Assembly: GCA_964404765.1 (NCBI GenBank)
Contig: CAYOLL010000002.1
Coordinates: forward strand, 6,604 to 70,603
DNA from: an uncultured Gemmatimonadota bacterium
GTDB taxonomy: Bacteria > 4572-55
Length of the DNA stretch: 64,000 bases
Reading direction: 5' to 3'
In this document: piece by piece, positions 35,358-64,000 of the stretch
Position numbering within the stretch: position 1 is the stretch's first letter
Layout: each line of letters opens with the position of its first letter
Translations under genes and position numbers: made by a program
Notes under the pieces: model-generated
Told to the model about the DNA's origin: nothing
Seen by the model: only the letters and a program-made list of their open reading frames with translations
The model's database searches: none

Positions 35358-38300
35358 ATGAAAAAATTCATTTTTTTAACATTGGCGGTGTTGGGTTGTG
35401 CCCAAATCACATTTGGGCAGTCTTCGATTCCCGCGCTTTCCAATGATCGTGTTTATGGCGGCGACGCAGTTAGTTCGGCAAAATTACAAGCTTTTATTAT
35501 TCATTATGAGCTGACCCATGTTAGCCCGGCCCGTTTTTTTGTCGTTTATGCTGCCGATACGGGCGGCAGTCTGCCCGCGTACACCTCCCGTTTAATCAAG
35601 ACCTGGCAGTATGACCGCCGTTTTGACAGGAACGAGCATATTATCTTAGTCTTCGCCCCAAAACAGCATGACTTTTATATCCATTTTGGCGATTCCTGGC
35701 AACACTGCTTTGACCTTGATAATGACTTGGCTCAACTGCAAGTTTTACTGAATGCCACCTACAAAACATCCCCGCAGGAAATCATCCGGATTCTCGACCA
35801 ATGGATGCAGACACATATCCGGCAGCGCCGCGAATTTGTAGCGCGGGGCGCCGCGCGGTTGCAAAAGATTAAAGCGCTTATTGCGGAAAAACAAGCTCAG
35901 CATCTTGTTTTTAGCCCACCGGAAGGCTATGCCATAGCCATCAGACGTTTTCAACAGATAGCCGGCGATTGCAATTGCAACCGCGTACAAGCCGCATTCA
36001 ACGCCCTCAATATTGCCTTAAACGATACCGAAGACGCCATCCGCGCAGCCGCTCAACAGCAGGCTGAGGCCAGGCTTAGTCTGGCCCATGCCAACGCCAT
36101 ATTTGGGCAGTTAGGCAAAACGTTCCTGGCTATTCCCGATTCTATTGCCGAACCGGCGCGAATTAAGAATGCTTATGCCGAAGTCGAATCGTTGCTGATT
36201 TTAGCGACCGACGAGTTGCCGACCCATTATGCCCAAAGCAATGAGCACAGTGTTTCCGCTTCCAATCTGGCCAATGTGCTTATTTTCCGCATCGAGCGCG
36301 CGCAAAAAATGCGCATGGCGGCTTATACGCTGAGCATTAAAATTAATGATCGTCTGGAAAATTTTGCGAATATGGATGCGCATAATCCGGTCAATATCAC
36401 TTTTGATCGCAAGCGCCTGGCAGCGTTACAGGATACTGTTAAAATGCTCATGGCAATACAAGCCGGTCAAGCCGAAGAATTTGTGCATAAAGGCACTAAC
36501 ATCTTAGAGCAATTGGATGAATTAAATAGCGCTACGTTAAAAGATCGAACCATCGCGACTTTGCATAATTATGGCGATCTTTTGACGATTGCTTTTTTTA
36601 TTGGGGTGATGTCAGTTTTATTTTCCTACACTATGTTTTACCATTATAAACGCCATGAATATATTGAGATTATCCTTAACGAGAAAAAATATGCCTGGGA
36701 GCGTTTTCAAGAGCACGCGCGATCTATTATCGATTTGCTGAACACGGGTTTTGGCAAGCTGATCCCAGCTCCGAATGGCCAGTTGCAAGTGCGTTTTTCA
36801 GGCCAATCCTATACACAATATAAAAAAGCGCTTTCGCAGATTAACAGCATTTATAGTCAACAGCATTTTGCCGAGCAAAACTTGACCGCCGTTCAAGCTT
36901 TTTTATCCCAAATGTCGCCCTGGAGACCTAATCTGGTCCAAGATGCCGTGGACTATTTAAAGGGTCAAAAAATAATCCCGGAAGATGCGGATTTTGATAC
37001 TTTTACTAAAAAAGTGAACACGGGCGATTTATCGTTGGCGCTGGTACAGATTGATCGCTTGATTATCAATCTTGACGATTATTATGAATCGGCTGCCAGC
37101 ATTCTGGAGCAAATCCGGGAGGCTCAGGAGCGGGTTCGACTGGAAGCGGCCAATGGTCAGGTTTTTGTCAGCCGGGTGCGTGACCTTCTGGCAGAACATC
37201 AAGCGGCCAATAATCTCCAGCCGTTTTATCAAAATCGTTTTGCAGAGCTTAAAGTTGATCTCAACAAGGTGCTTGCTCTGGAAAAAACAGATCCAATCGC
37301 TGCCGTACATGCCTTTGAAGGAATTACGGTTATGTTAAAAAGTTTAGTGGAAAATCTAACCCAGATTCCGGACTTTTTGGCAGAAAGTCAGTCCCTGACT
37401 GGCTGGCTGGATGATTTTAATCAGACGATCAGCCAATTGCGCGATTCCGGGTTACGTTTGCGAGAAGACGGCGGCCCGGAACCGTGCGTTGAAAGCGCCC
37501 GCGCTTTGTTGCACGAAGGCCAATACAACTTAAGCCAGGGTCGAATTACACAGGCAAAATCGGTATTTGATAGCGCCCGCAAATTATTGGAAGAGGCCAA
37601 CGCGCAAATTTCTAAGACAATTGAAATCAAAGATGTTGTAGCGCATCAAATTGCTGAGCTAAAAGCGCTTAACGAGCGGTTATACGATGAGATAGCCGAC
37701 ACGATGATCTCACTGGCAGATATGCGCAAAAGCTTTAAACAAGAAGCCTTTAGTCTGGAAAACGATCATGTGGATGAGTCGGTTCTGATTCTAAATAAGT
37801 GCGGCAATCTGCTGATTGAGGCGGAAATGTACATTCAGCCGTTTATGCAAAAATTTTTAGCGGCTTGGAAATTAGTGACCGAAGTTGAACAAATGCAGCA
37901 CGGTGTCCGGCATCTGTTAGTCCAGGTCAAAAAGCGACGCGCAACGCTTTACGATTTGCGGCGCGAAACACAAGCGCAATACGAAAGTTTAACGGATTTC
38001 TATACCCGTGTTGTTAATTTTGTGCGAAAGCATCACACCGATTTGCCGGCGGATTTCAGTGAGTTTTTGAGTATTATCGGTACAGATTGCGCCGATTTGC
38101 AACGGCGCTTCGAAGTCGAGCAGATTGATTGGGAAGATTTTAAAATTAATATTGGCGAGCTGGAAAAAGCGATTCTGTTTGTCTTTGAGCTGGCTTCGCA
38201 AAATGAGCAAAGCCGGATTTCGTATAAACTGCATCTGCAATCCGCGATGCTGACGATTCAGGAAGTGGAGGCGCTTTTTGCTGTCGAAGTAACGATGCCG

Positions 38301-38909
38301 CCCCTGGTGGCGCAGGAAATGTATACCTGCGCCAAGGCGCTGCTGGAAGTTGTCAATGAGTTGGGTCATCAGCAGTGTGCCGAATGGCCCGAGCAAATCT
38401 TATTGCTCGACTTGATTGACGAATTAGGAGACAGGGCCAAAAGCTGTGCGCTCAGGCCGCTTTCCTTAGATGAGCAGGTCGGGGAAACGCTGCAAGTGCT
38501 GGAGCAACCGGAAAATAAGCGTCAGCTCGAAAAAGCTAAGACAGATCGCGTCAATAAAATGCTGGCCGACCATATTGAAGAGCAGTATCGATCCGAGCAT
38601 TTTCAGGACGCAATTCAATCCAGCTTTCGCTTGCTCCTGACTGCTTATAAAGAAGAGTGTCTCAAGCGGATTGAATATAAAAAGACGATGCGCAAAAACG
38701 CTTTTGACGAATTGACCAATACTCGCAAGGCAACTCTGGCCAGGGCCAAAGCCGAGCGCACCGGCAGTTGGATTCGTCAAGCACGGGAACGGGCCTGGTA
38801 TTTGATGCCGCCCTCGTTTTTAACCACCGAAACAATCGTGCCGGTTCAGGTTGAAGAAGATAGCGATTTTATGGAGGCCACCGGCACAAGCGGCCTCCAT
38901 TTAGTCTGA
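35358..38909 (+). CDS. Large (1183 aa) signal-peptide protein with an N-terminal TPM (TLP18.3/Psb32/MOLO-1)-like domain, one TM helix and a ~750-aa helical / coiled-coil region
   Basis: Signal peptide 'MKKFIFLTLAVLGCAQITFGQ'. TPM-like block 'FFVVYAADTGGSLPAYTSRLIKTWQYDRRFDRNEHIILVFAPKQHDFYIHFGDSW'. TM helix 'LLTIAFFIGVMSVLFSYTMFYHY'. The rest is long and Glu/Leu/Gln-rich with no catalytic motif recognised. Confidence 0.55.
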   Translation: MKKFIFLTLAVLGCAQITFGQSSIPALSNDRVYGGDAVSSAKLQAFIIHYELTHVSPARFFVVYAADTGGSLPAYTSRLIKTWQYDRRFDRNEHIILVFAPKQHDFYIHFGDSWQHCFDLDNDLAQLQVLLNATYKTSPQEIIRILDQWMQTHIRQRREFVARGAARLQKIKALIAEKQAQHLVFSPPEGYAIAIRRFQQIAGDCNCNRVQAAFNALNIALNDTEDAIRAAAQQQAEARLSLAHANAIFGQLGKTFLAIPDSIAEPARIKNAYAEVESLLILATDELPTHYAQSNEHSVSASNLANVLIFRIERAQKMRMAAYTLSIKINDRLENFANMDAHNPVNITFDRKRLAALQDTVKMLMAIQAGQAEEFVHKGTNILEQLDELNSATLKDRTIATLHNYGDLLTIAFFIGVMSVLFSYTMFYHYKRHEYIEIILNEKKYAWERFQEHARSIIDLLNTGFGKLIPAPNGQLQVRFSGQSYTQYKKALSQINSIYSQQHFAEQNLTAVQAFLSQMSPWRPNLVQDAVDYLKGQKIIPEDADFDTFTKKVNTGDLSLALVQIDRLIINLDDYYESAASILEQIREAQERVRLEAANGQVFVSRVRDLLAEHQAANNLQPFYQNRFAELKVDLNKVLALEKTDPIAAVHAFEGITVMLKSLVENLTQIPDFLAESQSLTGWLDDFNQTISQLRDSGLRLREDGGPEPCVESARALLHEGQYNLSQGRITQAKSVFDSARKLLEEANAQISKTIEIKDVVAHQIAELKALNERLYDEIADTMISLADMRKSFKQEAFSLENDHVDESVLILNKCGNLLIEAEMYIQPFMQKFLAAWKLVTEVEQMQHGVRHLLVQVKKRRATLYDLRRETQAQYESLTDFYTRVVNFVRKHHTDLPADFSEFLSIIGTDCADLQRRFEVEQIDWEDFKINIGELEKAILFVFELASQNEQSRISYKLHLQSAMLTIQEVEALFAVEVTMPPLVAQEMYTCAKALLEVVNELGHQQCAEWPEQILLLDLIDELGDRAKSCALRPLSLDEQVGETLQVLEQPENKRQLEKAKTDRVNKMLADHIEEQYRSEHFQDAIQSSFRLLLTAYKEECLKRIEYKKTMRKNAFDELTNTRKATLARAKAERTGSWIRQARERAWYLMPPSFLTTETIVPVQVEEDSDFMEATGTSGLHLV

Positions 38910-40238: not shown

Positions 40239-42506
40239 TTATTTCATCAAAATCATCGACTTACGGGCGGTAAAACCGTCCGCAGTTTGTAGCTCATAAA
40301 AATATAATCCGCTGGCGACAACCGTATCCGAATTGCTCCGCCCGTCCCAGTAGATTTCCTGCCAACCGGCAGGTCGTTGCTCATCCAAGAGCGTCCTGAC
40401 CCATCGGCCACTAGCATCATAAATTTGCAGCTTGACATGACCGCTGTTCTGCAGCGCAAAACTAAGCATCGTTGCAGGATTAAAGGGATTCGGATAATTT
40501 TGTCCCAGCGCGTTGAAGCGAGCATCTGTACCAGGTTCAACGGCCACCGGTTGCTCGATGACGACCGGCAGATACGGACTCCAGAGGCTGGGTTGAAATT
40601 CGGCGTCACGACCGCGCGCCTGATAGTAATAATGCCCGTTCGGACGGTCTGGAGTTGAATAGGATGATGCGATCAAATTTTTGGCTATAATTTCGTCACG
40701 CTCGAATTGCATGACAGGTTTGATATCATCAAAATAAAATCCTTCACCTTCTACGCGGTCATCCGTCACATAACGAAACCGGATAAATAGCGCTTGACCC
40801 GCGTACGCCGACAGATCAAAATCGCCCTCAATCCAGCCGTCGGAAGCGCCGGTGATGCCGTGTCCCAAATTTTTGCGGTTTGGATCCTGTGTGGTGGTGA
40901 TATTGCCCGGAATGTTCGTAAAGTTAAGCCCGTCCGTGGAAATTGAGACATAAGCATAATCATACGCGCTTTCGGTTTCATACCAGGTTTTAAAGGTCAG
41001 ATGGGCTCCGGCTTCAACAAAAATCGGGCGAATGGCTGTTAAACGGGAATCCGCCCGTGACGAGCGGCCGGAGTAGTAACTTTTTTGGTTGCTAAAGGCC
41101 CGCGCGAGGGATGGCACAAAACCTTGATAAAGCCAGGGTATGTTACCTTCCGCACTGTCTGTAATTTGTTGGGCGTTGTACAGTTCCCGAACTTCATAGC
41201 TCACGGCCGGATTGGCCGGATCGGGACGCGGGGTCGTCCAGGACAGGTGAAAGCGGTTCCAACTGTCAAAGATGGCTTCCGGCCGGTCAGGTTGGCCGGG
41301 TGGATCGACGCCGCCCGGATTGCTGGAAAATAGCGCGGCTTTGATGTTAATGGGACGCGTGTCGGCTAATAATTGCGGGATGGCCGATTCTGACGGTAAA
41401 AATTCCGTGCCGACTTCCGGTGTAAATGACAGAATTTTGTTTTTGGTGATTTGATCGCCATAAAACCAATCATCCGAGTCGCCGTTAGTCTCATAAATGG
41501 TTCCGGAGGTCACATTGCCCTGCACGTAGCCGTTTTCAGCGACAAAAGCCTGGCCCAATTTGACAAAAGTTGCATGATCGGGGGTGTTTTGGGCGGCATA
41601 GCCCCAGGGATATAAGACCAGACGGCCATAGCTGTGATAGTTGATAGCAATGACAAATTTTCGATTTCGGGCAAAGTTCCGGATGGCCTGGTTTTCCGGC
41701 TCGGAAAATGCCGCAGGCCCGCGGTAGGTTTCCGCGGACATATTCGGATTGGAACCGACGTTGTTATAGCCCCAATTGTAGCCGTAATTCCGATTCAAAT
41801 CAACGCCATCGTATTGAAGATCAAAGATACCGCTGGCATTATTATCGCGAACATTTTTGCGCCAATAGTTGTAGGTGGTTGCCACGACATTATGACCGTC
41901 CGGGTTCAGCATGGGCACAACCCACACTTCCCGTTGATTTACAATAAAGGCCGACGTGTCGTTGACGGCATAGTTTTCCGTCAAAAATTTGATGAAATCC
42001 AAAGGGATTTCCGCCGTAATAATCTCCCGGCTGTGGTGGACGCCGATAATTAGCAGCTCCGGCTCATCCTCGTCCACAGCGGCGTTGTCGGATATTTTCA
42101 TGGCCCAGATGTCGCGATTTTGCCAGGTTTTGCCGATACTTTGCAGCAGGGTGATGTCCGGGAATGCCGTATGAATGGCCCGCAGTTCATCTTCTACTTC
42201 CTGAAAAGTATGATACTGACCCAGATCGCCGCGTTGGCTGACAGCACGGCTTATATAAGCGTCCATGTCGCTTTGCCGGATTTCCATAGACCAATCGGCC
42301 AGCTCCCGCCGGCCCAACTGCTCAGTCGGCACAAAGTAATCCCCATAATCATGAGGCAGACGGCACATCGCCGATTCGTAACCCAGCGCTTGCAAGTCAT
42401 CCGGCTGATGGCTCGCGTCAAAGTAGAAACGTACCAACGCTGTTTCTGCGTTCAAAAGCTGCGCCGAAAACAAAATGCTTATGGCAATCATCGTTTTTAA
42501 TTTCAT
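40239..42506 (-). CDS. Secreted M14-family zinc carboxypeptidase with a T9SS C-terminal sorting domain
   Basis: Signal peptide. M14 zinc motif context 'IGVHHSREIIT' and '...NPDGHN'. C-terminus 'GQNYPNPFNPATMLSFALQNSGHVKLQIYDASGRWVRTL...GLYFYELQTADGFTARKSMILMK' is the T9SS CTD. Confidence 0.8.
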   Translation of the reverse strand: MKLKTMIAISILFSAQLLNAETALVRFYFDASHQPDDLQALGYESAMCRLPHDYGDYFVPTEQLGRRELADWSMEIRQSDMDAYISRAVSQRGDLGQYHTFQEVEDELRAIHTAFPDITLLQSIGKTWQNRDIWAMKISDNAAVDEDEPELLIIGVHHSREIITAEIPLDFIKFLTENYAVNDTSAFIVNQREVWVVPMLNPDGHNVVATTYNYWRKNVRDNNASGIFDLQYDGVDLNRNYGYNWGYNNVGSNPNMSAETYRGPAAFSEPENQAIRNFARNRKFVIAINYHSYGRLVLYPWGYAAQNTPDHATFVKLGQAFVAENGYVQGNVTSGTIYETNGDSDDWFYGDQITKNKILSFTPEVGTEFLPSESAIPQLLADTRPINIKAALFSSNPGGVDPPGQPDRPEAIFDSWNRFHLSWTTPRPDPANPAVSYEVRELYNAQQITDSAEGNIPWLYQGFVPSLARAFSNQKSYYSGRSSRADSRLTAIRPIFVEAGAHLTFKTWYETESAYDYAYVSISTDGLNFTNIPGNITTTQDPNRKNLGHGITGASDGWIEGDFDLSAYAGQALFIRFRYVTDDRVEGEGFYFDDIKPVMQFERDEIIAKNLIASSYSTPDRPNGHYYYQARGRDAEFQPSLWSPYLPVVIEQPVAVEPGTDARFNALGQNYPNPFNPATMLSFALQNSGHVKLQIYDASGRWVRTLLDEQRPAGWQEIYWDGRSNSDTVVASGLYFYELQTADGFTARKSMILMK

Positions 42507-56037: not shown

Positions 56038-59000
56038 TTATTGCAGTAGCTTTTCCAGAGCCGCATTAACTTCCGCGGCTTGCTTCCGGGTCAGACGCTC
56101 CAGTTTTAAAATTTGGCTTATCTCGTGCCGGATACGTTGTTGATGCTCGGTGTAGGCGGCGCAAACCTGCCGGGTATGTGCTTCCGTTTGCGGGACGGGC
56201 ACCGGCCCGATTACGTGGCGCAACAGTACGATTTTCAAATACTCCGCTTCGCCGGCGGATTCACATTCCAGCCGATGGCCGTTGATGACCAAAACGGCTT
56301 TGTCAAAAAAGTATTCTATGCGCGGCGTTTCAATTTCGCGAATGTCCGGCAGGATGCGGGTTTTGACCGGCCAATCGGCATGAATAAAATCATCCGGAAA
56401 ACGGCGGCGCGGCTCGATTTTTTCCAGCTCGCTTAAAACATGGGCCGCAAAGGTGTCGGCGTTGAAATTTTCGACCCGTTTGCTTTTCTTGGACGTGACC
56501 GATTGCGGCTTGACATGCACCCGCTCGTAAACCAGGCGGCAAACTTCCCAATAGATTTCTTTGCATTCTTGCTCAGTCAAACCCAAGGCGTCGAAAATGA
56601 CATCGTCCAATTGTTTACGATCCGGCAACGGCTGTGGATCGGGCAAGGGTTTGGTTTTGTCGGCAAAGGCGGCTTTGGGCAGGCCGCATTCATGAAAGAT
56701 AGACTCTATTGGGCGCTTTGACAACTTTCTGATGGCTGATTTGAGCGTCTTTATTTGGTCGTTGCTAAATGCTTTGGGATTGGGGATCATAAGTTTGGCA
56801 ACTTCGTATGCCTCTGCTTTGAGTAAACCGCCACCAAAATTCACGCGACCTAATGAATTGAAGATGAGTTGAAAAACCGAACTGTTCGTCAACGCCAATA
56901 GCACACTAGAATCCGACTTGGCGTGTATTTCGTAAAAATTATTACTAAAGTATAATCCACCAGGCGTATAGTAAAAACGTACTATTTCATTGATTGCAAA
57001 ATTGCAGTTTATTTTTGCCGCTTTTCTTTTGCCAAGATCATACCACTTTTTTCTTGCGCTGCATGTTGGGCGCAAATGAAGATTTCTTGCTTCGCCCTCT
57101 TCAATGTATCGCAGAATATTTAACCCGAGTAATTCTTCTTTCGTTTTATGGCACATCAACAATTTATATTTCAACTCGGCTGGATAGATTAAAAGCAGAC
57201 TGCTTTCACGGGCATTTTTCACTGCCGGAACAAGAAACTCGTCTTCAATACCCCATGCCTTGGCGACGTCATCAGCAAGAAAGAAAAAATCATTATCACC
57301 GGTCTTGATCCCAAATCGCACATTTGCAACTGACCCAAGCGGTACCAACAAGTCCTTTTTTCCGGCTATTTCCAAAACTTTAAAGTAAATATCCGGCGCT
57401 CGCAGATATTTACTCCCCCATTTGCTGCCAGCGTAAGTCTGACCATGCATTCCTTCCTCGTACAATTTCTTTTGCTGAACCAGCACAACGCGAATCTGGT
57501 CATCCTCATAGAAAGAATGGCGCTGTTCGATCCGTTGTATCAACCGATCCACATCCTGCCAGCGCAGATCGTCTTCTTTATGGGGCGGGCAGTTTGGAAT
57601 CAAATCCTCAAAACGTGTCTTTAGGCTCACAAACCTGACGGTATTTTCATCACGCTCTTTTTGGTCGCGGCAGCGTTCGATAATTGTAATCACGCTATTG
57701 ACATCGGCGGCGGCAAAATCCCGTTCCGCAGGCGAAGCGATAATGGCAATGATTTTAAAATGTTGACACAGATAATGTTGCAACGACGCGCCATAACGCA
57801 CATCCAGCCAGCTATTGGATGTAATGTAGCCCAGTCGTCCGCCTTCTTTTAAAAAAGCGGCGCTGTGCAGAAAGAAGTAAACATAGATATCGGCCTGCTT
57901 GTTGATGGCCGTATTGACGCCCCATTCCATATTCAGGGTCGCGGCTAATTTTTCCTTATCGTCAATCAATTCCTGCCGGATGTAGGGCGGGTTGCCGACC
58001 GTGGCGTCAAATTCGGGAATAGCGACTTCGACGGTATCCTTGCCGGAAATATCTTCGAAGCGATACTTGATGCCGGTATGCTTGCGAACCTGAAAGAATC
58101 CGTTTTTGGGCATGATGTCAAAAGCGTCGCAATTTTGGATATAGGGAAAATTCTCTTTTTCGGATAGGTCAAGCATAGCCAAGTTCATCATGGCCAGATG
58201 GGACGGGAATTTGGCAATATCACAGCCCCAAAGTTGTTCTAACAATTGCTTATGCGAGCAGCTTTGACCAGCCAGATATTTTAAACGCGAATAACTGCGG
58301 ACTAAAAACGTTCCCGCCCCGCAGCTCCAATCCGAAATAATGGCCTCCGCTTTGGTGACGCAAAAACCGACAATCAAATCCACCCGATTAGCCGGCGTGA
58401 AGTATTGGCCCATTTCATGCCGGTCAGTTTCAGGAATCAGGCTCTCATAGACTCGGCCCAGAATCTCATAATTCAGGCCGGCAAAGTTGTAATTGTTCAG
58501 GTCTTTGATAAAGCGGGTCAGTTGCTCCACCGCATCGTCGGGGATACGCGCTTCGTCAAACACGGTCGCGGCGAAGATCGGCTGGTAGTCAATTTGCTTG
58601 ACCTTGTCAAAGTGCTGATTCAAATCGTGCTGAAGCTGCCGCCCGGTTTTGACGTTGACCGCAATGGGACCCAGTACATCCGGATAGTGGTTGCGGACGA
58701 CGTTATAAAAGACGACCTTGTTGATGATCTGAAACACGGCCAGTCGGGCGATTTTGAAGTAAAATTCGTAGGACACATGCTCCGAACCTATCCGGTTTTC
58801 GATGGCGCTGTTCCAGCCTTGGGCGCTCACCCATCTCACCAGCTTTGCGTAGAAACCTTTGTCGGTTTCGCTCGTAATTTTGAGCGCCGAGGCAAATACC
58901 GGCGTATTGATGTCCACCAAAAAAAGCAGCTTGTAGACAAAAAAATCATCAATGGGTACGCCAATAAAACGCGCCGGCTCGCTCAGGATATGATGAAATG

Positions 59001-59466
59001 TCGTAAGGAATTTTTCTAAAAAACTACGGATTTTGGCCCAATTTTCCTCGTTATCCAGCCGATCCAGGTCGTTGTCCGGTAACAGGACGATATTGCGCCA
59101 GATCATCTTTTGGCGCTGCATCAGCGGCACATTGGATTCGTGGGTTTTCCATAGAATAAAGTCGCGCACGTTCCAGGTGGCAAAGTAATCCACGGCCAGC
59201 GCATTGGCTTTCATCAGCGCGTTGTTGACGGTTTCCAGATCCGTGGCGTCATATTTGGGCTGCTTGGTCTCGAAGGAAAGCGCAAACTTTTGCCGTTGTT
59301 TATCCGCCCACAGCAAGCCGTCCAGAAACACGCTTTGCCCGCCGACTTTAAGCGAATGTTCGGCCTCGGCCTCTTCAAAAGATTGAAATAGTTCCGGCGC
59401 TCCGCGGATGATGGAATTCATCATCTCTATAATTTTATAGCGGAAAGTATGTTCGGTGAGTTTCAT
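56038..59466 (-). CDS. Fused PD-(D/E)xK nuclease / N6-adenine DNA methyltransferase / target-recognition-domain protein (Type IIG/IIL-like restriction-modification enzyme, MmeI-like architecture); an orphan BREX PglX-like methyltransferase is the alternative
   Basis: N-terminal 'FLDGLLWAD...ALSFETKQ' is a D...ExK motif. Helical spacer 'YEILGRVYESLI'. Methyltransferase motif X/I 'MGQYFTP...DWSCGAGTFL'. Motif IV 'VGNPPYIRQ'. TRD-type motif 'RFGIKTGDNDFFFL'. 1142 aa. No separate methyltransferase, S or R genes are adjacent. Confidence 0.65.
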   Translation of the reverse strand: MKLTEHTFRYKIIEMMNSIIRGAPELFQSFEEAEAEHSLKVGGQSVFLDGLLWADKQRQKFALSFETKQPKYDATDLETVNNALMKANALAVDYFATWNVRDFILWKTHESNVPLMQRQKMIWRNIVLLPDNDLDRLDNEENWAKIRSFLEKFLTTFHHILSEPARFIGVPIDDFFVYKLLFLVDINTPVFASALKITSETDKGFYAKLVRWVSAQGWNSAIENRIGSEHVSYEFYFKIARLAVFQIINKVVFYNVVRNHYPDVLGPIAVNVKTGRQLQHDLNQHFDKVKQIDYQPIFAATVFDEARIPDDAVEQLTRFIKDLNNYNFAGLNYEILGRVYESLIPETDRHEMGQYFTPANRVDLIVGFCVTKAEAIISDWSCGAGTFLVRSYSRLKYLAGQSCSHKQLLEQLWGCDIAKFPSHLAMMNLAMLDLSEKENFPYIQNCDAFDIMPKNGFFQVRKHTGIKYRFEDISGKDTVEVAIPEFDATVGNPPYIRQELIDDKEKLAATLNMEWGVNTAINKQADIYVYFFLHSAAFLKEGGRLGYITSNSWLDVRYGASLQHYLCQHFKIIAIIASPAERDFAAADVNSVITIIERCRDQKERDENTVRFVSLKTRFEDLIPNCPPHKEDDLRWQDVDRLIQRIEQRHSFYEDDQIRVVLVQQKKLYEEGMHGQTYAGSKWGSKYLRAPDIYFKVLEIAGKKDLLVPLGSVANVRFGIKTGDNDFFFLADDVAKAWGIEDEFLVPAVKNARESSLLLIYPAELKYKLLMCHKTKEELLGLNILRYIEEGEARNLHLRPTCSARKKWYDLGKRKAAKINCNFAINEIVRFYYTPGGLYFSNNFYEIHAKSDSSVLLALTNSSVFQLIFNSLGRVNFGGGLLKAEAYEVAKLMIPNPKAFSNDQIKTLKSAIRKLSKRPIESIFHECGLPKAAFADKTKPLPDPQPLPDRKQLDDVIFDALGLTEQECKEIYWEVCRLVYERVHVKPQSVTSKKSKRVENFNADTFAAHVLSELEKIEPRRRFPDDFIHADWPVKTRILPDIREIETPRIEYFFDKAVLVINGHRLECESAGEAEYLKIVLLRHVIGPVPVPQTEAHTRQVCAAYTEHQQRIRHEISQILKLERLTRKQAAEVNAALEKLLQ

Positions 59467-59736
59467 TTACTTAACCGGTTGCGCGAAAAGCTTTAAAATT
59501 GGAAAACGGATTAACGTGGATTCGACGGATGCACACGAATTTTTAATTTTTGCTTTTTTAATCCGTAATCCGCGAAAATCTGCTAAATTCGTGAAAATCC
59601 GTGTTCCAATCTTTATATCGTGACAGTAGTGCTGTTCGGCATAAGTTTGTGTGAACTCAAACCTGACGGGTTTTGGAAACCCGTCAGGTTTTGATCGTCG
59701 AAAAAGTTCACACGAACTTACGCCGCCTTGCAGTAG

Positions 59737-62700
59737 TTATTGAAGATCAATCAACGCAACAACATCCTGAATATCCACCATACCGTCGTCGTTAATATCG
59801 AACACCGCTTCATATTCCCAATCTTCCAGAATGGCGTCGGTCAGGATGCCGATATCGTCCGCGTCAATTTCGCCGTTGCCGTTGATGTCGCCCGTCATGA
59901 GCCCGTCCAGTGTTTGAAAAGACGCTTCGGCCAGACACACTTGCGTCTCTTTAAGATCGGTGACGCACAGTTGGTAAAAGTAGGTTTGATCAGGCATCAA
60001 GTTATGCAAGTTACCAATATGCGAAGTCGCCGGCGTTGTTAGCTCAGCCGCCATTGGATAAATGCCGCTCTGCATGCCATAATGAATTATAGCTGTGGTC
60101 AGCTTGTCCGTTGAAAAAGAGATTCTCGCGGTGGTTGCGGTGATATTGGAAACCGCTACATTGCTGACTACCGGGGCGGGTTCGTCGTTATCTTCAATGG
60201 TCAATTCAAATTGGGCAGGCGTACCAAGCTTGGCGCTGTTACCACCGGATAGATTTTGGAGTGAAAAAGTAATCGCCTCCACATTTTCGATGGTGCTATC
60301 ATCGGTGATATTCAAAGATACCGTTTGTAGTATCGCGCCACCCGCGGCAAAAGTTAGCCTTTTCGTGCTGAAGTTCCCCACATCCTCAGCCGATCCGGCA
60401 GTTAAGGCCACATCAATTTGGGTTGGGCCGCTAATGGATGGCGCGGTTATCAGTACTTCCAGGGTGTAACTGCCATCGCCCTCTTTAACCGTGGCATTGG
60501 CCGCGGCAAATTGCACGGTTGTGCGATCCAAAATCGTGAGTTGAAATTGCGCTTGCGTACCGATTTTGGCATTACTGCCGCCGGTGACATTCTGCAAGGT
60601 GAAAGTCAGGGATTCGCTGACTTCGGCCAGGGCATCTTCGGTGATCGTCAACGTCACGGTTTGCGTAGCGGCGCTGCCGGCGGGAAAGGTTAGGGTTTGT
60701 GTCGCAAAGTTGTTCACATCCGCCGCCGTTCCGGATGTCAGGGCAAGCTGCACGGTGGTGGCGCTGCCGGAAGCCGGGGCCGTCACGCTCACGCTCAATT
60801 GATAGCTGCCGCCTTCGATGACCGTGGCATTGGCCGCGGCAAACTGCACCGTCGTGCGATCCAAAATCGTCAGTTGAAATTGCGCTTGCGTACCGATTTT
60901 GGCATTGCTGCCGCCGGTGACATTTTGCAAGGTGAAGGTCAAGATTTCGCTGACTTCGGCCAGGGCATCTTCGGTGACCGTCAGCGTCACGGTTTGCGTG
61001 GCGGCGCTGCCGGCGGGAAAGGTCAGCGTTTGTGTCGCAAAGTTGTTCACATCCGCCGCAGTTCCGGATGTCAGGGCAAGCTGCACGGTGGTGGCGCTGC
61101 CGGAAGCCGGGGCGGTCACGCTCACCACTAATTGATAGCTGCCGCCTTCGATGACCGTGGCATTGGCCGCGGCAAACTGCACCGTCGTGCGATCCAAAAT
61201 CGTCAGTTGAAATTGCGCTTGCGTACCGATTTTGGCATTGCTGCCGCCGGTGACATTTTGCAAGGTGAAGGTCAAGATTTCGCTGACTTCGGCCAGGGCA
61301 TCTTCGGTGACCGTCAGCGTCACGGTTTGCGTGGCGGCGCTGCCGGCGGGAAAGGTCAGCGTTTGTGTCGCAAAGTTGTTCACATCCGCCGCAGTTCCGG
61401 ATGTCAGGGCAAGCTGCACGGTGGTGGCGCTGCCGGAAGCCGGGGCGGTCACGCTCACCGCTAATTGATAGCTGCCGCCTTCGATGACGGTGGCATTGGC
61501 CGCGGCAAACTGCACGGTCGTGCGATCCAAAATCGTGAGTTGAAATTGAGTGCGGACGCCCAACACCGGCGTATTGCCACCGGAAACATTCTGCAAGGTA
61601 AAAGTCAACGTTTCGTTGCTCTCGCTGACATTATCATCCGTCACGGTGATTAAGACCTTTTGGGCAGTAGCGCTGCCGGCCGGAAAAGTCACCGTCTGGG
61701 TCGCGTAATTATTGATATCTGCCGCAGTTCCGCCGGTTAAAGCAACTTGTACGGTTGTGGCTTGCGCGCCCGGATTAATCAGGCTTATTTCAAGTTCGTA
61801 GGTATTGCCTTCGATTACCGTCGCCGTCGCGGTGGCGAACTGCACTTCCGTGCTCGGCGGGGCATTGCTCCAGATTCGGTTGACCCATTCCGGGTGGTCG
61901 ATAAAGGGGTTGCGGTTGTGCTGAAGTTCGGCCACCCGCTCGTTGCGACGCATTTCCAGGGCATCGACCGGGTCGGCCTGATGCCAGGCCAGCAGAGTGG
62001 ATACGACCCCCAATTTGTTGGTGATATTATTCGGATCATGGTTTGTATCAATCAATTCCAGATTGTACGGGTCCTTGCCGCCGCTGCCTTCGTAACGCGC
62101 GTCCATATAAAAAATCATGCGTGCTACGTTGCCTTTATCCTGTGGACGTGGTTCAAACGAGTTGGCGTCGGCAAAGCAGCCGGTGGCAAAGCCGTCGCTA
62201 TCGCTATAGGGCGTACCGCCGTTATCAAAATCCATGCTGCCGCGCTTACTGTTGACCGTTACATCCGCCGGCCGTAAATGATGCAAATCAATATAGCCAG
62301 GCTCTTTATCATCAATGCCGATGCCATTGGGCCACACGTGTTCGCGGTTCCAGTTATCTGCACCCGTACCTTGTAGTGATTTGGCGCGGGATCGTCCGTC
62401 ATAAATCAAAATAACATTGTTGGGATTAGCGGGATCTTCGTCCGCATATTTGAGGCCGTCCCAGACTCCGTCATAGTTTGTGACGGCGTCTTCAAAATAG
62501 GTATCACGCAGCAAAGCATTCAAAATGCTTTTTAACTCCGGGCCGGTTTGATTGTTGATACCGGCATAGTAATCGCCGCTGCCGAAGGTGCGGGCATTGG
62601 CGGTGATGCCTGCGGAATAGGTGTCGCTATTTTTTGACCAAATCTTATAATAGTATAGGGTGGCTTCATTCCGACCGGTATGATTAAAATCGGCCAGACT

Positions 62701-64000
62701 GCCGACAGCCAGCACCGTAGCGGTACCGATGGGTTGGCCGGCTGTGTATGATCCGCTCGGTGTGCCAAAACTATTACTGGTATTAAACGCCAGCAGAATC
62801 TGATCATTAGCCACGTTGCGTGTCCAGACCAGATGAATTTCCGAAGCGCCGGTCGGGGTGGCGGTAAAATTGGTCGGATCAATCACGCCGCTTGAGCTTT
62901 TGATGGCGACTTCATCGACCTGCCAATTTCGGGCGGCGTTGGAGCCTGTGCCGCTGGACTGATAGTGAAACGCCAGCGCGACCTGTGAACTGGAGGCAAA
63001 AGCGGCTAAGCTGATGTCGCCGGAACTCGTCCAGGTTTGGTCCTGCGTCGGGTTCAGGAAATTGAGCGTTGTCCAGGAAGCGGATGCCGGATTGCCACCG
63101 ACAGTATAGTTAGTAGAAATCTTAAGCGCTAACCCGTTGATGGTATCGGTAAAGCGCACCCACTCCCAAAATTCCAGCACGGGATTGGTATAGCCGGTCA
63201 AATTAATGGTCGGGATCAAGAGCCAATCTTCGCTGGCAACATCGCCGCCAAAACCGCTGCAGGCCATGTAGCTGCCGCTGCCGTTGGCTCCGCCGCCCGT
63301 TGTGGCAATCGTCCAGTTGCGGTTGCTGGCCACGTTGTAAGTGTCCCAACTCCCGGAAGCGGATTCAAAGCTTTCCAGACCGGTAAAAGCCGGAATACCG
63401 GGCGTGACGGCGGAAGTTGTCGGGACGCTTCCGTCGGTTTTGTAGGCGATGTTGGCGCCGCTATTGGTATATGGGAAGATTTTAAAAGTGTAAGTGACCG
63501 TGGGACTCAGGTTTTCAAAAAAGAAAGATTGGACGCCGGGGTTGACATTGACAGCGGCGCTGCCGTCACCTAATTGATTATCATTGGTCACAGCGACGCC
63601 GTTCGTAGGGTTAGAAATAGCGCCGGCGCCGGCATTGCTGGCTTTGATCAAATAACCGTCCGGCGCGGCGCGAGTGGCGTCCGTCCAAATCACCGTGATT
63701 CGTCGCGGACTATTGGCGGTGGCGGTAAAGCCGGAGACATGATTACTTGGCGCATTTTTGAGCGTCGTCGCGTTGGCGTTCACGCCGCTGGAATATGTAT
63801 TGCCGCTGTTGTATGACCAAGCTTTATAATGATAGGTTGTGTTTTCGGCCCGCCCGCTATGAAGAACGCTGGTGTTGCTGCCGGCTACTATCACCTGGCC
63901 GCCGCCGGAAATCGTCTGACCCAGTGTATAGCCGCCGGTGGGTGTGCCAAAAGTCTGGCTGGTATTAAAAGCCACCAGCACGCTGTTATTATCGTTGTTA
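59737..64000 (-). CDS. Giant secreted multidomain nuclease, 5'-partial (continues beyond the window). Domain order: repeated beta-rich modules, MAM/LTD-like domain, Endonuclease-I-family domain, five Calx-beta repeats, FN3 and a C-terminal dockerin
   Basis: Endonuclease I motifs 'NREHVWP', 'SKRGSMDF', 'ARMIFYMDARY', 'NRNPFIDHPEW'. Five ~111-aa Calx-beta-like repeats ('TTVQFAAANATVIEGGSYQL...TFTLQNVTGGSNAKIGTQAQFQLTILDR'). FN3 ('PAPVVSNVAVSNITATTARISF...'). Dockerin-type Ca-binding repeats 'DINGNGEIDADD...DINDDGMVDIQD' lie at the extreme C-terminus. The frame is open to base 64000. Confidence 0.75.
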   Translation of the reverse strand, partial: NNDNNSVLVAFNTSQTFGTPTGGYTLGQTISGGGQVIVAGSNTSVLHSGRAENTTYHYKAWSYNSGNTYSSGVNANATTLKNAPSNHVSGFTATANSPRRITVIWTDATRAAPDGYLIKASNAGAGAISNPTNGVAVTNDNQLGDGSAAVNVNPGVQSFFFENLSPTVTYTFKIFPYTNSGANIAYKTDGSVPTTSAVTPGIPAFTGLESFESASGSWDTYNVASNRNWTIATTGGGANGSGSYMACSGFGGDVASEDWLLIPTINLTGYTNPVLEFWEWVRFTDTINGLALKISTNYTVGGNPASASWTTLNFLNPTQDQTWTSSGDISLAAFASSSQVALAFHYQSSGTGSNAARNWQVDEVAIKSSSGVIDPTNFTATPTGASEIHLVWTRNVANDQILLAFNTSNSFGTPSGSYTAGQPIGTATVLAVGSLADFNHTGRNEATLYYYKIWSKNSDTYSAGITANARTFGSGDYYAGINNQTGPELKSILNALLRDTYFEDAVTNYDGVWDGLKYADEDPANPNNVILIYDGRSRAKSLQGTGADNWNREHVWPNGIGIDDKEPGYIDLHHLRPADVTVNSKRGSMDFDNGGTPYSDSDGFATGCFADANSFEPRPQDKGNVARMIFYMDARYEGSGGKDPYNLELIDTNHDPNNITNKLGVVSTLLAWHQADPVDALEMRRNERVAELQHNRNPFIDHPEWVNRIWSNAPPSTEVQFATATATVIEGNTYELEISLINPGAQATTVQVALTGGTAADINNYATQTVTFPAGSATAQKVLITVTDDNVSESNETLTFTLQNVSGGNTPVLGVRTQFQLTILDRTTVQFAAANATVIEGGSYQLAVSVTAPASGSATTVQLALTSGTAADVNNFATQTLTFPAGSAATQTVTLTVTEDALAEVSEILTFTLQNVTGGSNAKIGTQAQFQLTILDRTTVQFAAANATVIEGGSYQLVVSVTAPASGSATTVQLALTSGTAADVNNFATQTLTFPAGSAATQTVTLTVTEDALAEVSEILTFTLQNVTGGSNAKIGTQAQFQLTILDRTTVQFAAANATVIEGGSYQLSVSVTAPASGSATTVQLALTSGTAADVNNFATQTLTFPAGSAATQTVTLTITEDALAEVSESLTFTLQNVTGGSNAKIGTQAQFQLTILDRTTVQFAAANATVKEGDGSYTLEVLITAPSISGPTQIDVALTAGSAEDVGNFSTKRLTFAAGGAILQTVSLNITDDSTIENVEAITFSLQNLSGGNSAKLGTPAQFELTIEDNDEPAPVVSNVAVSNITATTARISFSTDKLTTAIIHYGMQSGIYPMAAELTTPATSHIGNLHNLMPDQTYFYQLCVTDLKETQVCLAEASFQTLDGLMTGDINGNGEIDADDIGILTDAILEDWEYEAVFDINDDGMVDIQDVVALIDLQ
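60480..61800. repeat. Tandem 333-bp coding repeats (four units, the central two nearly identical) encoding the Calx-beta modules
   Basis: For example, the 150-bp block gaccgtcagcgtcacggtttgcgtggcggcgctgccggcgggaaaggtcagcgtttgtgtcgc... recurs at 60980 and 61313. Period is 333 bp. Confidence 0.8.

Follow-up and report, generated by a model that had tools for sequence, protein, structure and literature searches.

A predicted secreted nuclease of the Endonuclease I family that ends in a dockerin where its relatives usually carry a type IX secretion tail

Why should a large secreted nuclease end in a dockerin? The question is raised by a gene on the minus strand of a 64,000-nt stretch of contig CAYOLL010000002.1 (the window, to which all positions refer), whose product combines an Endonuclease I catalytic domain with Calx-beta repeats, FN3 modules and a C-terminal dockerin. 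On this strand 1420 codons can be read without interruption between the window edge at 63999 and a TAA stop at 59737-59739; the preceding 264 codons, start codon included, are cut off by the edge, and the GTG 'start' at 63981 in the list of open reading frames (ORFs) is an edge effect. The full-length product, P0001 (residue numbers are those of this protein unless stated otherwise), was found in the protein collection with 100% identity to the window ORF. It has 1684 aa, is recorded once, on a single 94,121-bp NCBI contig, and has no name attached. An earlier note on this DNA had described a giant secreted protein of more than 1420 aa with its N-terminus outside the window, and the complete protein agrees with that description: no frameshift interrupts the 1684 open codons, and residues 1-21, MRKFRLTIWTLLMCFSTAQA, when read by eye, show the three parts of a Sec signal peptide (n-region, h-region and a c-region with AxA). 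The mature protein has a mass of about 174 kDa and an isoelectric point of 4.3. From the N- to the C-terminus, P0001 consists of the signal peptide, an N-terminal domain, two FN3 modules, a choice-of-anchor J module, a third FN3, the Endonuclease I domain, five Calx-beta units, a last FN3 and the dockerin. The part within the window is divided as follows, all on the minus strand.

59737-63999, minus: nuclease gene, 3' 84% (codons 265-1684 of P0001 and the stop)
63757-63999, minus: FN3-like module 1, truncated at the window edge, with approximate boundaries (Pur_ac_phosph_N/fn3 matches of the isolated segment)
63394-63756, minus: FN3 module 2 (Pfam fn3, 36.5 bits on the isolated segment)
62884-63393, minus: beta-sandwich module of the choice-of-anchor J family, as judged from NF052645 and from homologous modules compared with NF038128
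62587-62883, minus: FN3-like module 3 (weak Pur_ac_phosph_N match; recurring FN3-like sequence pattern)
61849-62586, minus: Endonuclease I (beta-beta-alpha-metal) catalytic domain (Pfam, AlphaFold2 model, Foldseek, profile against Vvn, alignment A1)
60178-61845, minus: five tandem Calx-beta units (Pfam, Tandem Repeats Finder, unit comparison)
61516-61845, minus: Calx-beta unit 1
61183-61515, minus: Calx-beta unit 2
60850-61182, minus: Calx-beta unit 3
60517-60849, minus: Calx-beta unit 4
60178-60516, minus: Calx-beta unit 5
59917-60177, minus: FN3-like module 4 of the Pur_ac_phosph_N type, directly before the dockerin (27.9 bits, E = 3.7e-6, cut-off of 30 not reached)
59740-59916, minus: C-terminal dockerin with two 12-residue Ca-binding loops and a helix-forming stretch after each (Pfam, PDB sequences, pairwise matches to marine nuclease dockerins)

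The dockerin call is sound at the level of sequence. Both of the Ca-binding repeats proposed in the earlier note are present: the loops DINGNGEIDADD (59854-59889) and DINDDGMVDIQD (59764-59799) lie 30 residues apart, and each has D/N at positions 1, 3, 5, 9 and 12. The score against Dockerin_1 (PF00404) is 19.0 bits, under the cut-off of 22.9, when the whole protein is scanned (window-ORF residues 1370-1417); it rises to 24.3 bits when only the C-terminal 148 aa are taken, and the last 54 aa alone reach 27.8 bits (E = 2.8e-6, profile positions 2-53 of 57). EF-hand models match the module weakly. In a comparison of the last 60 residues with PDB sequences, the best matches were all dockerins (E = 0.0035-0.03), among them those of R. 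flavefaciens (5lxv_B), C. perfringens NagH (2jnk), and C. thermocellum CelS and Xyn10B; the R. flavefaciens, NagH and Xyn10B dockerins align with that of the window over both repeats. A single-sequence AlphaFold model of the dockerin (predicted local distance difference test, pLDDT, 57) was too poor to use, and the helices were not confirmed by it. The Por_Secre_tail (PF18962) of the T9SS (type IX secretion system) gave no Pfam match in the window ORF at E<=0.1, and the protein ends in the dockerin, as the earlier note had read it.

Among the best 120 homologues, P0001 is the only protein with C-terminal dockerin loops. The other homologues that bear PF04231 number 27, of which 20 have the PF18962 tail and none a dockerin; most of the 21 nuclease-bearing homologues that were extracted end in T9SS-like sequence, and those that are complete show T9SS-like tails. 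Because 20 of the 27 kin carry PF18962 and none a dockerin, the dockerin of P0001 appears to occupy the position that is usually held by the T9SS tail in relatives of the Fibrobacterota-Chlorobiota-Bacteroidota (FCB) type. The GTDB representative genomes that were scanned contain no close orthologue of P0001 (the best match, at 53% identity, covers the nuclease domain only), and no second copy of the gene was found in any collection searched. The N-terminal domain (residues 22-240) has no match in Pfam or NCBIfam and is common to P0009 only, a protein in which an LTD domain sits elsewhere.

A dockerin-bearing nuclease had been called unusual, and this holds within the FCB-type relatives (0 of 27) but not beyond them, where marine nucleases that join Endonuclease I (EndoI) to ExeM carry C-terminal dockerins. 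Three Aliiglaciecola species (GTDB loci L044, L065 and L069) encode EndoI-ExeM nucleases of about 1460 aa, with the architecture (in L044) LTD, EndoI, LTD, LTD, ExeM/NucH (NF033681, 611 bits) and a dockerin-like end. The same Aliiglaciecola-type family with a dockerin-like end accounts for 16 of the 80 EndoI-bearing ORFs in JGI/TARA metagenome loci (L087, L088, L096, L097, L113, L114, L120, L122, L131, L134, L143, L148, L153, L157, L160 and L162). These marine nucleases are 1283-1517 aa long and have a conserved Cys-Thr-Arg-x-Arg-Cys tail after the dockerin; eight of the ten tails that were tested exceeded the Dockerin_1 cut-off, with 26.6-33.6 bits, and two of the dockerins align with that of the window at 31-33% identity. 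In the literature searched, we found no paper that ties dockerins to extracellular nucleases and none that describes the marine EndoI-ExeM-dockerin family.

What, then, would the dockerin hold? The Endonuclease I domain and its four motifs, which had been named from the sequence, were all located. Endonuclease_1 (PF04231) matches window-ORF residues 488-704 with E = 4.8e-36 and 125.1 bits (cut-off 25) over profile positions 4-235 of 235, and the motifs REHVWP, RGSMDF, RMIFYMDARY and NPFIDHPEW lie at 62329-62346, 62227-62244, 62092-62121 and 61885-61911, respectively. The REH motif supplies Glu817 and His818 (within 62329-62346), and a VN pair supplies Asn847 (within 62239-62259). In an alignment of 16 family members (A1), the Glu-His of REH and the Val-Asn of VN are invariant, as are, in domain numbering, E86, H87, D104, H107, P110, D112 and N116. 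The A1 profile matches Vvn with E = 8.5e-20 and aligns DLHHLRP..VNSKR with DLHNLTP..VNGDR, the segment with the metal-binding Asn. HMMER did not align REH directly, and we take REH to be Glu79/His80 of Vvn; a phmmer search of Vvn with the short REHVWP segment gave no match. Because of the residues invariant in A1 and the Vvn-aligned Asn segment, the catalytic apparatus (E817, H818 and N847) looks intact.

An AlphaFold2 model of the nuclease domain, built on A1, reached a pLDDT of 80 and a predicted template-modelling score (pTM) of 0.84. When it was compared with the PDB by Foldseek, endonuclease I structures were the only matches, with probability 1.0, TM scores of 0.53-0.65 and 17-20% identity (Vvn 1ouo/1oup, V. 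salmonicida 2pu3, and V. cholerae 2g7e, 2g7f and 2vnd); the next match had an E-value of about 5. According to this model, the fold is of the Vvn type, in which a helical domain backs a His-Me finger. With its single Cys, the nuclease domain lacks the four disulfides that mark the EndA/Vvn subgroup, not PF04231 as a whole. Because these disulfides are absent, P0001 is not an EndA/Vvn-type orthologue. The window protein scores 28.7 bits against the NCBIfam deoxyribonuclease I equivalog (cut-off 372) and has no ExeM/NucH match in NCBIfam. In the GTDB representative genomes, its nuclease domain is 45-53% identical to proteins of 280-450 aa from the Bacillus cereus group, Rossellomorea, Clostridium, Lentzea, Streptomyces, Rheinheimera and Marinomonas. 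The domain belongs to a cysteine-poor subgroup of PF04231, about 50% identical to small enzymes of Bacillus, Clostridium and actinomycetes. PF04231 holds the Mg-activated RNase Bsn besides DNases (PMC5714182), so that the word 'DNase' in the earlier note was an assumption, made for a domain that is 17-20% identical to Vvn/EndA. The term nuclease is appropriate; the enzyme may act on DNA, on RNA or on both.

The Calx-beta array lies between the nuclease domain and the C-terminal FN3-dockerin pair. Five stretches match Calx-beta (PF03160) above the cut-off (E = 2.9e-40, 137.4 bits), and Tandem Repeats Finder reports a 333-bp period, with 3.2 copies and 96% matches, at 60488-61548. Units 2 and 3 are 99.4% identical in nucleotides (2 of 333 bases differ), unit 4 is 94% identical to both, and units 1 and 5 have diverged; five units with nearly identical 333-bp repeats had been predicted, and this is what is present. 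Because the 333-bp units are nearly identical, the copy number seems a fair assembly concern, and the length of this gene in short-read assemblies is not to be trusted.

The FN3 modules had also been foreseen correctly. The fn3 and Pur_ac_phosph_N matches were weak when the whole 1420 aa were scanned, and fn3 was recognized on an isolated segment. A representative search with the C-terminal region gave 3781 proteins at E<=0.001, mostly through FN3-like module 4; among these matches, otherwise tandem-FN3 proteins, only P0269 aligned through the dockerin. P0269 (L083 100-2151, Logan SRR33471263) has a polysaccharide deacetylase domain followed by a C-terminal cassette of an FN3 (Pur_ac_phosph_N type) and a dockerin, and this cassette is 37% identical to that of the window. 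The resemblance suggests that the FN3-dockerin pair moves between enzymes as one unit.

The MAM/LTD-like beta domains of the earlier note, on the other hand, did not survive. Neither LTD (PF00932) nor MAM (PF00629) matched the 1420 aa of the window at E<=0.1, and neither did so at E<=1 in five non-catalytic stretches scanned one by one: the N-terminal domain, the FN3 1-2 pair, the beta module, FN3 3, and the last FN3 together with the dockerin. The module at 62884-63393 matches the C-terminal region of NF052645 (NCBIfam, E = 2.2e-14), and 15 of its 16 homologues (33-41% identity) match NF038128 choice_anch_J (best E = 4e-19), although the window copy itself gives nothing against NF038128 at E<=1. 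By this homology the module probably belongs to the choice-of-anchor J family; it contributes 104 domain matches among the best 120 homologues and drives most of that list. Its profile has a weak link (E = 0.0018) to the Lys-gingipain adhesin domain 4itc. BLASTP showed no similarity of the beta module to the InhA-like MAM domain of a neighbouring M14 peptidase or to the N-terminal domain of P0001.

The neighbourhood of the gene indicates the kind of cell in which the protein would act. The relevant features are these.

115-1704, plus: T9SS cargo protein with Ig/cadherin/He_PIG domains
40239-42506, minus: T9SS cargo protein of the M14 carboxypeptidase type; it has an InhA-like MAM domain and ends in FlgD_ig/Por_Secre_tail
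56038-59466, minus: Eco57I / N6_Mtase / MmeI_Mtase-like protein of 1142 aa, 270 bp downstream of the nuclease gene
59640-59722, minus: very stable nested hairpin just 3' of the nuclease stop (free energy -46.4 kcal/mol, z = -8.15, equalled by 0 of 200 shuffles)

The two T9SS-tail proteins are those already counted in the earlier note, and the window also encodes a TonB protein and a TonB-dependent receptor (CarboxypepD_reg/Plug). This set points to a diderm host with a T9SS. The pyruvate dehydrogenase E1 of the window is at most 74% identical to the rest of the collection, and its best named relatives (about 70-71%) are from Ignavibacteria bins. The host is accordingly an uncultured member of the FCB group, of uncertain finer placement. 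The hairpin has no clear U-tract and is probably a transcript end or an mRNA-stabilising element. The protein downstream of it is probably a single-chain type IIG restriction-modification (RM) enzyme; a functional link between the nuclease and the RM gene was set aside, since adjacency was the sole evidence and the strong hairpin lies between the genes. An ORF of 1183 aa at 35358-38909 (plus strand) belongs to no Pfam family, apart from a sub-threshold match to TPM_phosphatase (20 bits).

We hold with moderate confidence that P0001 is a modular, acidic, secreted nuclease, held at the cell surface through its Ca-dependent dockerin and cutting extracellular nucleic acids. It would be exported by Sec and end at or beyond the cell surface, where the beta-beta-alpha-metal site, with His818 as the general base and Asn847 as the Mg2+ ligand, would cut extracellular DNA, RNA or both in an Mg-dependent manner and without regard to sequence. 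A long, Ca-stiffened stalk or spacer may be formed by the Calx-beta units and the FN3 modules. The dockerin would hold the enzyme, in a Ca-dependent manner, on a partner, most likely a cohesin-bearing surface protein that is possibly T9SS-anchored, and would thus substitute for the T9SS C-terminal domain that anchors related nucleases. A likely role is the harvest of nucleic acids as nutrients, the trimming of a nucleic-acid matrix near the cell, or both.

Contrary to the earlier note, a dockerin alone does not imply a cohesin, and yet a cohesin partner is plausible. P0116 (L082 5368-10341, JGI sample 3300017814), a homologue of P0001 through the choice-of-anchor J module, is a protein of 1657 aa with a T9SS tail, three cohesins (87 bits), BACON and choice-of-anchor J/DUF5017 domains, and is a candidate T9SS-anchored scaffoldin on a Bacteroidota-like contig. 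In Cloacimonadota bins, signal-peptide hydrolases that end in dockerins accompany a cohesin scaffoldin with a T9SS C-terminal domain (Williams et al., PMC8542988). P0116 and this precedent make a cohesin partner reasonable.

Several points weigh against such a surface-held nuclease or its cohesin partner. No cohesin was found in the 64-kb window by Pfam on its 21 large ORFs, and a home-made cohesin hidden Markov model run over the window and all loci returned a self match only. The cultured ignavibacterium Melioribacter roseus reportedly uses Por tails, with no dockerin or scaffoldin domain in any of its cellulase genes (PMC3534657). No outer-membrane route was identified for a protein without a T9SS tail, and the predicted nuclease belongs to a family that includes an RNase. 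In a scan of the entire protein the dockerin stays under the Pfam cut-off, and its model gives no usable structural support. Finally, the dockerins of the marine nucleases may work without a cohesin, and so may that of P0001.

The last point leads to the alternative that survives best, namely that the dockerin binds no cohesin and is a stand-alone, Ca-binding, EF-hand-like pair; we regard this as possible, if somewhat doubtful. Such a pair might stabilise the C-terminus outside the cell, or bind polysaccharide, the S-layer or another protein fold. The lack of a cohesin within the window and the weak EF-hand matches are consistent with it, as is a dockerin at the same position in the Alteromonadales-like marine nucleases, with Pfam scores of up to 33.6 bits; we know of no cohesin systems in that marine lineage, and dockerin-like modules are reportedly commoner than cohesins across genomes. 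However, all dockerins with a solved partner bind, to our knowledge, a cohesin, including that of the non-cellulosomal C. perfringens NagH, itself among the best PDB matches of the window dockerin. Cohesin-bearing T9SS proteins, moreover, occur in related metagenomic lineages (P0116; PMC8542988).

It is improbable that P0001 resembles E. coli EndA or Vibrio Vvn in staying within the periplasm, where it would degrade incoming foreign DNA, possibly together with the adjacent RM gene. The protein does have a Sec leader, and no signal for sorting to the outer membrane is recognisable in it; the Endonuclease I members that have been characterised reside in the periplasm or are secreted, and they reduce transformation (PMC5714182); and the type IIG Eco57I/MmeI-like RM gene lies 270 bp downstream. 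However, a 174-kDa protein made up of FN3, Calx-beta, choice-of-anchor J and dockerin modules is typical of the cell surface, its relatives are T9SS cargo, and the Vvn-type disulfides are absent from a domain with one Cys; adjacency to the RM gene is weak evidence by itself, with a strong hairpin between the two genes. It is very improbable that assembly errors account for part of the architecture, through a wrong join or a collapse in the 333-bp repeats that altered the copy number or joined 5' and 3' parts of two genes: although units 2 and 3 are almost identical, the contig is probably from a short-read metagenome assembly and no second gene copy occurs in the collections searched, 1684 codons are open, the sequence of units 1 and 5, of the last FN3 and of the dockerin is unique and continues the repeats in frame, a chimera would require a second gene with the same repeats, and a wrong copy number, quite conceivable in itself, would leave the domain content unchanged.

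If the dockerin of the proposed surface nuclease does plug it into a surface scaffold, cohesin-dockerin assembly in non-cellulolytic diderms would recruit nucleic-acid-degrading enzymes besides glycosidases and peptidases, and closely related surface enzymes would swap their anchors, T9SS tail or dockerin, as cassettes. Extracellular DNA and RNA are a major phosphorus pool, and such an enzyme bears on their scavenging by uncultured bacteria of sediment and water, and on the turnover of biofilm matrix. A broader and rather unlikely idea is that dockerin-tagged extracellular nucleases form an unrecognised cross-phylum class, consisting of P0001 of the FCB group and the marine gammaproteobacterial EndoI-ExeM enzymes, each held at the surface by a dedicated receptor: in T9SS bacteria a T9SS-anchored cohesin protein, by which cargo could join the surface complex though lacking a T9SS tail of its own, and in gammaproteobacteria some other receptor. 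If this were true, the class would carry cohesin-dockerin assembly beyond the breakdown of polysaccharides and into the harvest of nucleic acids. Current understanding is not overturned by these results, which add a documented case and point to a recurrent architecture of which we found no description in the literature searched.

P0001 has the catalytic fold and the Glu-His...Asn residues of the Endonuclease I family (PF04231, or His-Me finger group 9: EndA, Vvn, V. cholerae Dns and RNase Bsn), whose members are Sec-secreted, sequence-nonspecific and often fused to cell-surface Ig-like domains. The solved Vibrio enzymes, however, are proteins of about 230 aa with disulfides and only 17-20% identity to the domain, whereas P0001 has 1684 aa and one Cys in the domain. 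Among the EndoI proteins already described are surface-associated ones that combine the nuclease with fn3, LTD or Big_2 domains (PMC5714182). Shewanella ExeM is likewise a large secreted nuclease that is held at the envelope by a C-terminal sorting or anchor module (the NCBIfam ExeM model is of the GlyGly-CTERM type), but its catalytic family (ExeM/NucH) and its anchor differ from those of P0001. The marine EndoI-ExeM nucleases have an EndoI domain 40-50% identical to that of P0001; they add a second nuclease, ExeM/NucH, and LTD domains, where P0001 has Calx-beta and choice-of-anchor J, and they are from a different, gammaproteobacterial phylum without T9SS.

With respect to the dockerin, the C. 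perfringens NagH/NagJ toxin complex and the proposed 'Ca. Stygibacter' complex of Cloacimonadota (PMC8542988) also consist of signal-peptide hydrolases with C-terminal dockerins in the absence of cellulosomes, and the Stygibacter scaffoldin is reported to have a T9SS C-terminal domain, which is the anchoring logic proposed here for P0001. Their cargo, however, is glycosidases and peptidases, whereas that of P0001 is a nuclease, and the 64-kb window contains no scaffoldin. With the cellulosome, P0001 has only the docking module in common; the cargo again differs, no scaffoldin accompanies it in the window, and the term cellulosome does not apply. The closest overall relatives of P0001 are T9SS-sorted EndoI/FN3/choice-of-anchor J proteins (for example P0031, P0037, P0040 and P0044), and the hosts of the P0031 type are metagenome bins of Bacteroidota, Ignavibacteria, 'Chlorobi' and Cloacimonadota. 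What they have in common with P0001 is a signal peptide and, with 39-50% identity, the series FN3, choice-of-anchor J, FN3 and EndoI; the relatives end in Por_Secre_tail PF18962, whereas P0001 ends in five Calx-beta units, FN3 and the dockerin. In short, modular, anchored and secreted Endonuclease I proteins were already known, and what appears from the sequence to be new here is a dockerin at the position where a T9SS tail is usual.

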